Shown one piece after another: positions 30,948-35,005 of a DNA stretch of 64,000 nt; the stretch's first letter is position 1; each line of letters starts with the position of its first letter. Location: sequence record PQ511149.1; one strand, 5' to 3'. The notes below the pieces were generated by a model. The model was not told the DNA's origin. It did not search any database and saw only the letters and a program-made list of their open reading frames with translations. Source of the DNA: Escherichia phage NHEP11. The position numbers were made by a program, and so were the translations under genes.

Positions 30948-33900
30948 ATGGCTACTTTAAAACAAATACAATTTAAAAGAAGCAAAACTGCAGGAGCACG
31001 TCCTGCCGCTTCAGTATTAGCCGAAGGTGAATTGGCTATAAACTTAAAAGACCGTTTACTTTTTACTAAAGATGACCAAGGAAATATCATTGATCTTGGT
31101 TTTGCTAAGGGTGGTAGTATTGACGGGAATGTTATTCATACTGGCAATTATAACCAAACTGGCGATTATACTTTAAATGGCACCTTCACTCAAATTGGCG
31201 ATTTCAATCTCAAGGGTATTGCTCGCGTAACTCGTGATATTATTGCTGCGGGTCAGATAATGACCCATGGTGGCGAACTTATTACAAAAAGTTCAGGTAC
31301 AGCACATGTTCGTTTTCATGATTTAGCTGACCGTGAACGTGGAATCATTTTTTCTCCTGCTAATGATGGATTAACTACACAAGTTCTTAATATTAGAGTT
31401 CAAGATTACAAAGCTGGTTCAGAAAGCACTTTCGCTTTTAATGGAAATGGTTTGTTTTCTTCACCAGAAGTTTTTGGGTGGAAATCTGTATCAACTCCGG
31501 TAATTTATACCAATAAAGTTATCACCAATAAAAAAGTTAAAGATGATTATGACATCTATTCGATGGCAGACAATGTCCCATTGTCTGAAAGCACTACTGC
31601 TATTAATCATCTACGTGTCATGCGCAATGCAGTAGGTTCTGGTATTTTCCATGAAGTTAAAGATAATGATGGAATAACTTGGTATAGTGGAGATGGATTA
31701 GATGCTTATCTTTGGTCATTTACCTGGAGCGGCGGAATTAAATCAAGTCACTCAATTTCTATCGGTTTAACACCCGGTAATAAAGATTATTCAATATTAG
31801 GACCATCTAGCATTGCTTTAGGAGATAATGACACCGGGTTTAAATGGCATCAGGATGGATATTTTTTTACGGTAAACAACGGTACAAAAACTTTCCTTTC
31901 TGGTCCGGCGGAAACCACTAGCCTTAGAAAAATGGTTATGGGTTATTCTGTAAATGGTACCGATTTGACTACTCCTCCAACTGAAAACTATGCTCTTGCT
32001 ACTGTTGTGACATATCATGATAATAACGCGTTTGGAGATGGTCAGACTCTTTTAGGATATTATCAAGGCGGTAACTATCATCATTATTTCCGCGGCAAGG
32101 GTACCACAAACATTAATACTCATGGCGGTTTGTTAGTTACTCCTGGTAATATTGACGTTATTGGTGGTTCGGTTAATATTGATGGTCGTAATAATGCTTC
32201 TACATTGATGTTTAGAGGTAACACAACCGGTAGTAGTTCAGTTGATAATATGACAATTTCTGTATGGGGTAATACGTTTACTAATCCTAGTGTAGGTAAT
32301 CGTAAAAATGTCATGGAAATTTCTGACGCAACTAGTTGGATGAGCTATATTCAAAGACTTACTACTGGTGAAGTAGAAATGAACGTTAACGGTTCATTTG
32401 AATCATCTGGTGTTACTGCTGGAAATAGAGGAGTTCACACAACGGGCGAAATTTCATCTGGAGCAGTGAATGCTCTTCGTATTTGGAACGCAGATTATGG
32501 AGCCATTTTTAGACGTTCAGAAGGAAGTCTTCATATTATTCCAACTGCTTATGGCGAAGGCAAAGATGGCGATATCGGTCCACTTCGTCCGTTTAGTTTG
32601 GCTTTAGATACAGGTAAGGTGGTTATTCCTGACTTAGATTTATCCCATACCACTTTTGCAGCAAATGGTTTTATTAAATTTGGCGGTCATGGAGCAGGCG
32701 CGGGTGGTTATGATATTCAGTATGTTCAAGCAGCTCCTGTTTTCCAGGAAATTGATGATGATGCTGTAAGCAAATATTATCCTATTGTTAAACAGAAGTT
32801 TTTAAACGGTAAATCCGTTTGGTCTTTAGGTACAGAAATTGAATCAGGTACATTCGTTATTCATCATCTGAAAGAAGATGGTTCACAAGGCCATACATCA
32901 AGATTTAATATGGATGGTACTGTTAATTTCCCTGATAATGTTCTGGTCGGTGGTGGTGAAGCTGCTATTGCTCGTAATGGTAATATTTTCTCTGATATTT
33001 GGAAAGTATTTACAACTGCAGGTGATGTAACTAATATCCGTGACGCTATTGCTACTCGTGTTTCTAAAGAAGGCGACGCGATGACCGGCACTCTTTGGAT
33101 TAATAAAGATGCTGCTGGAATAGTTCTTAATCCTCCTTTGGCCAGTGATTCATCATTTATTCGTTCCGATACGGCCGGGGTCAATAATTGGTATATTGGT
33201 AAAGGCGGTGCCGACAATGGTCTAGGTTTTTACAGTTATGTTACACAAGGCGGTGTATATATAACAAATAACGGAGAAATATCACTTTCTCCTCAAGGCC
33301 AAGGAACATTTAATTTTAATAGAGACCGCCTTCATATAAACGGTACACAATGGGTTGCGCATAAATCTGGCGCCTGGGGTGACCAATGGGGTTTAGAAGC
33401 TCCTATATTTGTAGATTTTGGATCCGTCAGCAATGACTGCTATTATCCTATTATTAAAGGAAAATCTGGTATTACTAACGAAGGATATTTTTCCGGCGTA
33501 GATTTTGGTATGCGACGCATTACTAATAACTGGGCACAAGGTATTATTCGTGTAGGTAACCAGGAAAATGGCCATGACCCACAAGCTATCTATGAATTCC
33601 ACTCTAATGGGACTTTTTATGCTCCGAGCTTACTTAAGAGCAACAGAGTATCGGCTGGCGGTGGTGACCCTGCATGGGGTGGGCCGTGTATTGTACTTGG
33701 AGATAACGATACCGGTTTGCTTTGGGAAGCAGACGGTATTTTCAACGCGTATGCAAACGGCCAAGGTGTGTTTAGTTTTAGACCTGGTTTAGCTCAGACA
33801 TTCGGTGATGTTAACTTCCACTGTAATGCAGGTATGTATGTTCGTGATAACATTGATGTTAACGACGTTTATATTCGTTCTGATATTCGTTGTAAGTCGG

Positions 33901-34196
33901 AAATTAAGCTTATTAAGAACGCTCAAGAGAAATCTAAACTATTGGGCGGTTATACTTATCTGCTTAAAAACTCTGTTACAGACGAAGTTAAACCGTCTGC
34001 CGGTTTAATTGCTCAGGAAGTTCAAAAAGTATTACCTGAACTTGTTTCTGAAGATAAAGAGACAGGCTTACTTCGTTTAAATTATAACGGTATTATCGGT
34101 TTAAATACCGCTACTATCAACGAGCATACTGATGAAATCAAGGAATTGAAATCTGAAATTGCTGAGTTGAAAGCATTAATTAAATCATTATTATAA
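30948..34196 (+). CDS. 37: long tail fibre distal subunit gp37 with C-terminal intramolecular chaperone-like domain
   Basis: 1082 aa; C-terminus ...[13 protein letters not shown]...[15 protein letters not shown]... matches endosialidase-chaperone (S74-type) consensus. Confidence 0.9.
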
Positions 34197-34225
34197 GAAA
34201 GGGCCTTCAGGCCCTGGAGGTTTTT

Positions 34226-35005
34226 ATGGCAGTAGTAGGAATTCCTGGTTGGATTGGAACATCAGCGGTGGCTGAAACAGGTCAACGTTGGATGACAGCG
34301 GCCTCTAGAGAATTACGTCTAGGGAACCCATCTTGGATGTCCCAATTCGCGGGCCGTTCAAGAGAAATAATTCATACACTTGGTGCAGACCATAACTTTA
34401 ACGGGCAATGGTTCCGTGACCGTTGCTTTGAAGCTGGCGGCGCTCCTATAGTGTTTAATATCACCGGAAATTTAGTATCATATAGTAAAGATGTTCCATT
34501 ATTCTTTATGTATGGCGATACACCAAATGAATATGTTACTTTGAATATTCATGGTGGAGTTCATATGTGGGGACGAGGTGGTAACGGTACTGTAAACGGA
34601 AACCCAGGCACAAATGGCGGCGATGTAATCCAAAATGATATCGGCGGAAGACTTCGTATTTGGAACTATGGCGTTATTGCATCAGGCGGTGGCGGTGGTG
34701 GTGCAGTGTCATTAAAGAATAGCTGGGCGCCAAATGCTACAGCAGGTGGCGGTGGTGGTAGACCATTTGGCATCGGCGGAGGTGGCGTTAATTGGCCGGG
34801 TGGTAATGCTAGTTATGACGCCCCGGGCGGTGCCGGTTACACTTCCCAATTCGGCGGAGGCAATGGCGGTGATGCTGGCGCTTGGGGCGGAGATGGATGG
34901 GGTAATCACTTATCTAGATCTGGCGGTGGTGCTCCTGGCAGAGCAGTATTCGGAAGTTCACCGTCATGGGGTGCTACAGGCACAATCTACGGCTCCTGGA
35001 TTTAA
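34226..35005 (+). CDS. 38: tail fibre adhesin gp38, T2/T6 type with glycine-rich motifs
   Basis: 259 aa; poly-Gly stretches ([40 protein letters not shown]) separating variable segments. Confidence 0.85.
34680..34950 (+). repeat. glycine-rich motif array within gp38 adhesin
   Basis: runs of GGT/GGC codons encoding poly-Gly blocks between variable segments. Confidence 0.7.

Follow-up and report, generated by a model that had tools for sequence, protein, structure and literature searches.

Tail fibre tips in which a processed gp37 carries a separate gp38 adhesin are well described in the literature of 1986-2026, in T2/T6 (1986-87), the T4 superfamily (2011), S16 (2018), BASEL (2021), the fPS phages (2021), the FL phages (2025) and PP01 (2026). 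According to PMC3157838, citing Drexler 1986, the gp37 of T2 and T6 undergoes proteolytic processing and carries gp38 as its cap. In S16, gp37 is cut at DLNVS^SDRRIKK and gp38 binds afterwards (PMC7917993; PMC6851490); docking of gp38 needs the departure of the chaperone (PMC7917993), and three Trp residues of gp38 plug into the gp37 trimer (PMC6851490). Cleavage at the corresponding junction has already been predicted for the fPS phages (PMC7917993), and both the DVYIR^SD junction and the organisation of the adhesin have been described (PMC7917993, PMC3157838, PMC6851490, PMC12032242). In PP01, loops D and E of gp38 mediate binding to OmpC of E. coli O157 (PMC12892980). The RefSeq note of T4 states that the gp38 of the T2 subfamily is unrelated and acts as an adhesin.

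The current work concerns genes 37 and 38 of Escherichia phage NHEP11, in a window of 64,000 nucleotides (the whole stretch of DNA that was analysed; PQ511149.1). The window belongs to Mosigvirus, and a 24-kb neighbourhood is colinear with Escherichia phage NHEP10 at 98.2% identity. With high confidence, the locus can be assigned to an RB69/PhAPEC2-like T-even phage of Mosigvirus as its long tail fibre distal tip module, which follows the T2/S16 design. Its architecture is that of an ordinary, well-described tail fibre tip; the prediction of OmpF as receptor is the sole addition to known biology.

Organisation of genes 37 and 38

Genes 37 and 38 lie on one strand with 29 nt between them, upstream of t and asiA (Table 1). 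Both open reading frames lie where an earlier note on this DNA had placed them, and two gp37 peptides quoted in it were located at aa 975-987 (nt 33870-33908) and aa 1019-1033 (nt 34002-34046). The note began its module at position 33850; from there, the codon of the predicted cleavage site, S978 (nt 33879), follows 29 nt downstream.

Table 1. Features of the gene 37-38 region in the NHEP11 window
Feature	Position	Strand	Basis
Gene 37, long tail fibre distal subunit precursor, 1082 aa	30948-34196	+	ORF list
D973-V-Y-I-R977, final five residues of predicted mature gp37	33864-33878	+	Motif position; cut predicted between nt 33878/33879
Intramolecular chaperone domain of gp37, aa 978-1082 (105 aa), Peptidase_S74 core aa 978-1033	33879-34193	+	PF13884 and 6F45_A
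Putative heptad-like C-terminal chaperone helix, aa 1058-1082	34119-34193	+	Sequence reading; aligns with S16 HTKEINELKKQLKELKDIVKFL
GC-rich hairpin AGGGCC-ttca-GGCCCT, between gene 37 stop and gene 38 RBS	34200-34215	+	Pattern scan, folding
Shine-Dalgarno GGAGG of gene 38, 5 nt before ATG at 34226	34216-34220	+	Sequence reading
Gene 38, predicted monomeric tail fibre tip adhesin, 259 aa and stop	34226-35005	+	Pfam; PDB 9V85, 6F45_D
gp38 attachment domain, aa 1-42, with W9, W22, W37	34226-34351	+	PF21721
gp38 linker and N-terminal beta-helix part, aa 43-115, approximate boundaries set by alignment	34352-34570	+	9V85/6F45_D alignment
gp38 polyglycine (PGII) sandwich with hypervariable loops, aa 116-235	34571-34930	+	Gly runs; alignment
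Predicted receptor loop A, aa 122-127, TVNGNP	34589-34606	+	PP01 mapping
Predicted receptor loop B, aa 163-172	34712-34741	+	PP01 mapping
Predicted receptor loop C, aa 186-190, GGVNW	34781-34795	+	PP01 mapping
Predicted receptor loop D, aa 205-208, YTSQ, shorter than in PP01	34838-34849	+	PP01 mapping
Predicted receptor loop E, aa 222-228, GDGWGNH, approximate (indel nearby)	34889-34909	+	PP01 mapping
gp38 C-terminal strands closing the beta-helix, aa 236-259	34931-35002	+	Alignment
T4-type late promoter consensus TATAAATA, upstream of holin gene t; downstream boundary of the module	35024-35031	+	Sequence reading

The N-terminal part of gp37 (about 680 aa) is similar to the gp37 of T4 and T2, and Pfam placed a Gp34_trimer-like segment at aa 450-549. 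Over the protein, identity to the gp37 of Bas47 is 94.9%. At the extreme C-terminus, within the last 105 of the 1082 residues, Peptidase_S74 (PF13884) matched aa 978-1033 with E = 1.2e-11 and 45.1 bits (Pfam cut-off, 22 bits), covering model positions 1-57 of 58. Residues 909-1081 aligned with 6F45_A, the crystallised S16 gp37 tip and chaperone (E = 8e-30); when the chaperone domain was used as the sole query, 6F45_A was found with E = 1.6e-23, and the S74 domain of MYRF (7DC3) gave a weak match (E = 0.14). The C-terminal intramolecular chaperone claimed in the earlier note is thus borne out by the Peptidase_S74 match, the 6F45_A alignment and a Ser/Lys(+5) pair as in T2, T6 and S16. The domain probably ends in a helix (Table 1).

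The gp38 protein is covered by two Pfam families, Gp38_N (PF21721; aa 1-42, E = 8e-21, model 1-40 of 40) and GP38 (PF05268; aa 47-259, E = 1e-82, model 1-218 of 218); the Pfam scores for gp37 and gp38 are far beyond chance. It matched the crystal structure of PP01 gp38 (9V85) with E = 7e-73 and 66% identity over aa 39-258, and S16 gp38 (6F45_D) over its full length with E = 1e-48. The earlier note had read gp38 as a 259-aa adhesin of the T2/T6 type with variable segments between glycine motifs, and had proposed alignment of gp37 and gp38 with T2, T6 and S16 as a check. This alignment found similarity to T2-type adhesins (BLASTP identity of gp38: T2, 51%; T6, 64%; S16, 43%), in agreement with the PP01 and S16 structures, and the variable segments between conserved glycine motifs are seen in the gp38 alignments. 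A single-sequence AlphaFold2 model of gp38 was unusable (mean pLDDT 31.6; pTM 0.18), and the fold assignment rests on sequence homology to the solved adhesin structures.

Conservation differs along gp38. In the attachment domain, W9, W22 and W37 are invariant across the alignments with T2, T6, S16, RB69, Bas47, FL33 and fPS-2. Residues 43-115 are 90-99% identical to T6, RB69, FL33, fPS-2 and Bas47, and residues 236-259 are 100% identical to Bas47, RB69, fPS-2 and FL33. Glycine makes up 25% of the protein and 34% of aa 115-259, with runs at G154-159, G174-178 and G184-187. In an alignment of eight phages, 30 of the 45 Gly columns of the glycine-rich domain were invariant, compared with 11 of the 75 non-Gly columns.

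A hairpin appears between genes 37 and 38 at the equivalent place in Bas47, FL33, fPS-2, RB69, T6, T2, S16 and T4, with different stem sequences. The pattern scan listed that of the window as terminator-like on both strands, and its folding energy was unexceptional relative to shuffles (z = -0.87). A terminator or regulatory reading was set aside, as the hairpin is of a common T-even intercistronic type that is also present in T4. At the place equivalent to that of the late promoter consensus, fPS-2 also has an annotated late promoter. Two open reading frames within gene 38 (34734-35012, plus strand; 34712-34909, minus strand) were rejected as by-products of GGN-rich sequence, in which GC reaches 0.53. 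Scans for tRNA and Rfam families over the whole window found nothing, and a PDB sequence search with gp35 gave no match.

Predicted loops and receptor of gp38

The five predicted receptor loops of gp38 were mapped from PP01 (loop A, W119-I124; PMC12892980) through a HMMER alignment. Identity of the window's gp38 is 99.6% to the PHB12 protein and 98.5% to its counterpart in Bas47 (AlbertHofmann), and dependence of Bas47 on ompF has been established by knockout and complementation (PMC8594841). OmpF is also the receptor of RB69 (PMC3157838), fPS-2 (PMC7917993) and FL33 (PMC12032242). In the polyglycine sandwich (aa 116-235), identity is 98% to Bas47, 98% to RB69, 96% to fPS-2 and 93% to FL33; the corresponding values are 51% for T6, 57% for T2 and 46% for S16. 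We predict that gp38 is placed at the tip of the virion and binds an outer-membrane protein; judging from the identity to Bas47 and RB69, the receptor of the NHEP11 allele is most probably the porin OmpF. For RB69-type phages, a requirement for FhuA and a complete LPS core besides OmpF has been reported (PMC3157838), so OmpF may not be the sole requirement.

Four substitutions separate gp38 from that of Bas47: A54T, K164Q, I183L and A219G (window residue, position, Bas47 residue). Residue K164 is located in predicted loop B and is Q in all four close relatives compared (Bas47, RB69, fPS-2 and FL33), whereas A219 immediately precedes predicted loop E. Since K164 lies inside a predicted loop, fine specificity could differ from that of Bas47.

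The architecture may be right and the receptor nevertheless be another, such as Tsx, OmpC, OmpA or FadL, or substitutions specific to the window may have altered specificity. The lysine in predicted loop B counts for a receptor other than OmpF, and a few loop substitutions can alter gp38 specificity according to host-range mutant studies cited in PMC3157838 and PMC12892980; moreover, the BASEL authors call sequence-based receptor prediction for such adhesins "ambiguous". However, four adhesins whose dependence on OmpF is known from experiment are 93-98% identical in the receptor-binding domain, in which those of T6 (Tsx), T2 (FadL/OmpF) and S16 are only 46-57% identical, and adhesin phylogeny gave a correct receptor prediction in PMC12032242. 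A departure from OmpF is thus considered fairly unlikely. A narrower proposal, in which K164 and A219 would set fine specificity apart from that of Bas47 and RB69, with a possible preference for certain OmpF alleles or the use of an additional receptor, is given a low probability.

Predicted release of the gp37 chaperone

A Ser at the scissile bond and a Lys five residues downstream form the dyad of endosialidase and T5 pb1. In gp37, the pair Ser978/Lys983 is found in DVYIR^SDIRCK. The [DN]VY[IV]R^SD junction is common to Bas47, FL33, fPS-2, RB69, T6 and T2, and DLNVS^SD is its counterpart in S16. An SDxRxK sequence with Ser and Lys(+5) is located at the equivalent place in T2, T6, RB69, Bas47, FL33 and fPS-2, and S16 has S^SDRRIK. 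These features suggest that gp37 very probably cuts off its own C-terminal chaperone; by the precedents of S16 and T2, the release would be autoproteolytic and would take place after trimerisation. The beta-strand D973-R977 is the predicted docking face for gp38.

The S74-like domain could instead be a non-catalytic relic, which either stays on or is cleaved off not by itself but by a protease of the host or the phage. In SDIRCK, the residue between Arg and Lys is Cys, whereas Leu, Ile or Val is found there in most relatives, a point in favour of such a relic. Yet Ser and Lys(+5) are both kept, the Pfam match exceeds the cut-off across the whole model, and the infectious phage Bas47 carries an identical DVYIR^SDIRCK; in S16, the chaperone must leave before gp38 docks (PMC7917993). 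A relic is very improbable on these grounds.

With autoproteolysis as the preferred reading, assembly of the tip most likely proceeds as follows. The last 105 residues of the 1082-aa gp37 precursor, the Peptidase_S74 intramolecular chaperone, would aid trimerisation of the beta-helical fibre. With Ser978 and Lys983 as the catalytic pair, the chaperone would then cleave the Arg977-Ser978 bond and thereby detach itself, and the cut would expose a flat hydrophobic end of the trimer (…DVYIR). A single gp38 would dock there through its N-terminal helical domain with W9, W22 and W37, for a predicted gp37:gp38 stoichiometry of 3:1. The beta-helix of gp38 would bear the polyglycine-II sandwich, and its distal hypervariable loops would bind the outer-membrane receptor of the host.

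Comparison with known tail fibre tips

The locus shares with T4 its position, the gene order, the N-terminal two thirds of gp37 and the intercistronic hairpin. In contrast, T4 gp38 is an unrelated 183-aa chaperone, and T4 gp37 has its own receptor-binding tip with no match to the S74 domain. BLASTP found no significant similarity between the two gp38 proteins (best E = 1.7, over 60 aa at 17% identity), and the match to T4 gp37, at 34% identity, is confined to aa 1-680 of the window protein and leaves the tip unmatched; the difference from T4 noted earlier therefore holds. A layout of the T4 type, with gp38 as a mere assembly chaperone absent from the virion and the gp37 C-terminus binding the receptor, is scarcely credible and was dropped: near-identical genes in several records are labelled "long tail fiber assembly chaperone/catalyst", but gp38 lacks similarity to T4 gp38 and matches the adhesin Pfam families end to end as well as two solved adhesin structures, and gp37 ends in an S74 chaperone, not in the T4 needle/tip domain.

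The "assembly chaperone/catalyst" label is a historical one, carried over from T4. The value of the present analysis lies in annotation, namely of gene 38 as an adhesin gene in place of the label used in several near-identical GenBank records; the OmpF prediction may help in phage choice or engineering.

Within Mosigvirus, the gene order 34-35-36-37-38-t-asiA is shared with Bas47, NHEP10, PHB12, PhAPEC2 and RB69. RB69 differs in the attachment domain of gp38 (aa 1-42), which is 48% identical, whereas the receptor-binding domain is 98% identical. The closest solved structure is the receptor-binding domain of PP01 gp38 (9V85; mBio 2026, PMC12892980), whose beta-helix part is nearly identical and whose loops A-E, in contrast, differ in sequence and length.

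The resemblance to S16 (PDB 6F45; Dunne et al. 2018) extends to a C-terminal chaperone of gp37, which is autocleaved in S16 and predicted to be so in the window, and to a gp38, presumably also monomeric, with a three-Trp attachment domain, beta-helix and polyglycine-II sandwich. S16 differs in its more distant gp38, its tip strand (DLNVS, not DVYIR) and its loops, and it is a Gelderlandvirus with a Salmonella host. T2 and T6 (Riede, Drexler, Henning 1986-87) likewise have a processed gp37 capped by a glycine-rich adhesin of about 260 aa, with VYIR followed by the SDxRLK chaperone motif; unlike the window, they belong to Tequatrovirus, their gp38 proteins show the lower identities given above, and their receptors are FadL/OmpF (T2) and Tsx (T6). 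Endosialidase (K1F), T5 pb1 and MYRF share the Peptidase_S74 family, the Ser-x4-Lys at the start of the domain and its C-terminal place in a trimeric beta-helical fibre, with similarity at the family level only. The passenger also differs from theirs: here it is the tail fibre of a T-even phage, and the end left by the cut would serve as the docking site for a separate adhesin.

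Tail-fibre locus and phage identity

Genes 34 to 38 lie in the operon encoding the long tail fibres of a T-even phage, followed by holin gene t on the same strand and then by asiA on the opposite one (coordinates can be seen in the table). The gp36, T holin and tail-fibre domains of the locus were all recognised by Pfam. The 24-kb neighbourhood is colinear with Escherichia phage NHEP10 at 98.2% identity and is 95-97% identical to AlbertHofmann (Bas47), PhAPEC2, PHB12 and similar Mosigvirus phages; by sequence, these identities identify the window as an RB69/PhAPEC2-like Mosigvirus.

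Coordinates of features in the window and in gp38
Feature	Position	Strand	Details
Gene 34	25257-29090	+	ORF list
Gene 35	29099-30223	+	ORF list; proximal hinge connector
Gene 36	30283-30939	+	ORF list
Gene 37	30948-34196	+	ORF list; 1082 aa
Gene 38	34226-35005	+	ORF list; 259 aa
Hairpin between genes 35 and 36	30226-30245		GGAGAC-ttcg-GTCTCC + T run, TATAAATA after
Hairpin between gene 37 stop codon and gene 38 Shine-Dalgarno	34200-34215		AGGGCC-ttca-GGCCCT, GC-rich
T4 late-promoter consensus, upstream of t	35024-35031		TATAAATA
ORF inside gene 38, other frame	34734-35012	+	ORF list; 92 aa
ORF inside gene 38, other frame	34712-34909	-	ORF list; 65 aa
gp38 attachment domain	34226-34351		aa 1-42
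gp38 polyglycine sandwich	34571-34930		aa 116-235
Predicted gp38 loop A	aa 122-127		mapped from PP01
Predicted gp38 loop B	aa 163-172		mapped from PP01
Predicted gp38 loop C	aa 186-190		mapped from PP01
Predicted gp38 loop D	aa 205-208		mapped from PP01
Predicted gp38 loop E	aa 222-228		mapped from PP01
DAHP_synth_1 family protein (KdsA/AroG-like aldolase)	9301-10293	-	330 aa; E 4e-75
ORF without Pfam match	46241-47341	-	366 aa
ORF without Pfam match	4371-5186	-	271 aa

The intercistronic hairpin was the sole addition from the promoter/terminator scan. The position of the 37-38 hairpin is shared with Bas47, FL33, fPS-2, RB69, T6, T2, S16 and T4; the stems of these relatives have other sequences with the pairing kept, and several carry UUCG loops. 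It looks like one of the well-known C(UUCG)G hairpins found between T4 genes, a class reportedly described by Tuerk and colleagues in 1988. The mechanical ORF list begins t with the ATG at 35039, but translation most likely starts at the ATG at 35051, which is preceded by GGAGG; the resulting product (MAAPKVSF…, 219 aa) is annotated likewise in NHEP10 and Bas47.

Elsewhere, Pfam matched gp35 aa 58-131 to the ILEI/PANDER-like family PF15711 just over threshold (30.2 bits, cut-off 27, E 6.6e-7), and gp35 had no match in a sequence search of the PDB. The DAHP_synth_1 gene, also annotated in NHEP10, lies directly downstream of the dCMP deaminase gene, in the cd-pseT region; T4 is not known to have such a gene at this position. 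It may be connected with the modification of Mosigvirus DNA by arabinosyl-hydroxymethylcytosine. The larger ORF without a Pfam match corresponds to an NHEP10 'hypothetical protein' flanked by rIIA and the gene for the large topoisomerase subunit. The tRNA and Rfam scans of the whole window found nothing.

The gp37 chaperone domain and the gp38 adhesin

The peptides from which an earlier note had proposed a C-terminal intramolecular chaperone are located at gp37 aa 975-987 and 1019-1033. Pfam Peptidase_S74 ('chaperone of endosialidase') matched aa 978-1033 over the entire model (E 1.2e-11; 45 bits, cut-off 22). The domain, of 105 aa and reaching the C-terminus, opens with S978-D-I-R-C-K983, the Ser/Lys(+5) arrangement of Peptidase_S74. 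In the PDB sequence search, gp37 aa 909-1081 matched the S16 gp37 tip fragment 6F45_A (E 8e-30); the chaperone domain alone matched the same fragment (E 1.6e-23) and, weakly, the MYRF S74 domain. The family match, the Ser/Lys pair and the 6F45_A match bear out an endosialidase-type chaperone. In the gp37 C-terminal alignment, the junction [DN]VY[IV]R|SDxRxK is common to all the adhesin-type phages compared, with the form DLNVS|SDRRIK in S16, and their chaperone domains comprise 99-117 aa.

Gp38 is matched end to end by Gp38_N (aa 1-42, E 8e-21) and GP38 (aa 47-259, E 1e-82). Glycine makes up 25% of the protein and 34% of aa 115-259, with runs of G6, G5 and G4. Because of this glycine content, local GC rises up to 0.53 at gene 38 and spurious ORFs appear in other frames; the two listed in the table were rejected as genes, being best explained as by-products of GGN-rich, 53% GC sequence. 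In the gp38 alignment, 30 of 45 glycine columns are invariant versus 11 of 75 columns between the glycine motifs, so the variable segments are indeed separated by conserved motifs. W9, W22 and W37 are invariant across the alignments made here. The PDB search returned the PP01 gp38 receptor-binding domain (9V85; E 7e-73, 66% identity, aa 39-258) and, along the full length, S16 gp38 (6F45_D, E 1e-48); a single-sequence AlphaFold2 model was of unusable quality (pLDDT 31.6). The PP01 loops A-E (PMC12892980) were transferred to gp38 through alignment. The occurrence of Peptidase_S74 and a glycine-rich gp38 at 33850-35005 is confirmed, far beyond chance.

In S16, the last 113 gp37 residues are an intramolecular chaperone, autocleaved at DLNVS^SDRRIKK after trimerisation, which uncovers the gp38 docking surface; in fPS phages, a cut following DVYIR was already predicted (PMC7917993). 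Gp37 of T2 and T6 undergoes proteolytic processing and is capped by gp38 (PMC3157838, citing Drexler et al. 1986). In the S16 crystal structure, three conserved tryptophans join a single gp38 monomer to the gp37 trimer, and a polyglycine-II sandwich displays five hypervariable loops at its distal end (PMC6851490). Each of these features recurs in the window, which has the DVYIR977|S978 junction, the three tryptophans, and conserved glycine motifs with variable residues between them. By analogy with these relatives, the chaperone domain would be autocleaved at this junction after trimerisation, the cut end would form the docking surface, one gp38 monomer would dock through W9, W22 and W37, and the polyglycine-II sandwich would present the hypervariable loops distally. 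Such an architecture and mechanism can be proposed with high confidence, and the earlier reading of the module is supported.

Probable receptor and gp38 mosaicism

Gp38 was compared domain by domain with its relatives. In the polyglycine-sandwich region, identity to the window is 98% for Bas47 and RB69, 96% for fPS-2, 93% for FL33, 57% for T2, 51% for T6 and 46% for S16. OmpF dependence was established for Bas47 by ompF knockout and complementation (PMC8594841), for fPS-2 and fPS-90 by complemented ompF mutants (PMC7917993), and was also reported for FL31, FL33 and FL34 (PMC12032242); RB69 needs OmpF, FhuA and the full LPS core (PMC3157838). The 93-98% identity of this region to that of four experimentally OmpF-dependent phages argues that the adhesin is very probably OmpF-specific, and OmpF is the likely primary receptor. 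This assignment goes one step past the earlier interpretation.

The closest relatives differ between the attachment domain and the receptor-binding sandwich of gp38, which is therefore mosaic: RB69 is 48% identical in the former and 98% in the latter, and fPS-2 74% and 96%. The pattern agrees with earlier descriptions of modular exchange in the gp38 adhesin family. Presumably, the attachment domain and the gp37 tip vary together.

Comparison with known phages

Publications already cover the tip architecture, the cleavage motif, the adhesin fold, the contrast with T4 and even the use of adhesin similarity to predict receptors, and near-identical genes are deposited in GenBank; the feature is already known and nothing in it is new. 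Several of these records call gene 38 'assembly chaperone/catalyst', on present evidence a misnomer for this allele; its persistence in records is the practical point.

The locus was compared with those of T4, S16, T2, T6, Bas47, FL33, fPS-2 and RB69. Gp38 is 99.6% identical to that of PHB12 and, by BLASTP, 98.5% to Bas47. The four substitutions relative to Bas47 are A54T, K164Q, I183L and A219G (the window's residue is given first), and K164 falls within predicted loop B. BLASTP identities of 64% to T6, 51% to T2 and 43% to S16 agree with the T2/T6-type adhesin named in the earlier note. The difference from T4 also holds: T4 gp38 showed no significant BLASTP similarity to window gp38 (E 1.7), and T4 gp37 matches only aa 1-680 of window gp37, whereas gp37 of T2 and S16 matches the C-terminal ~250 aa as well.
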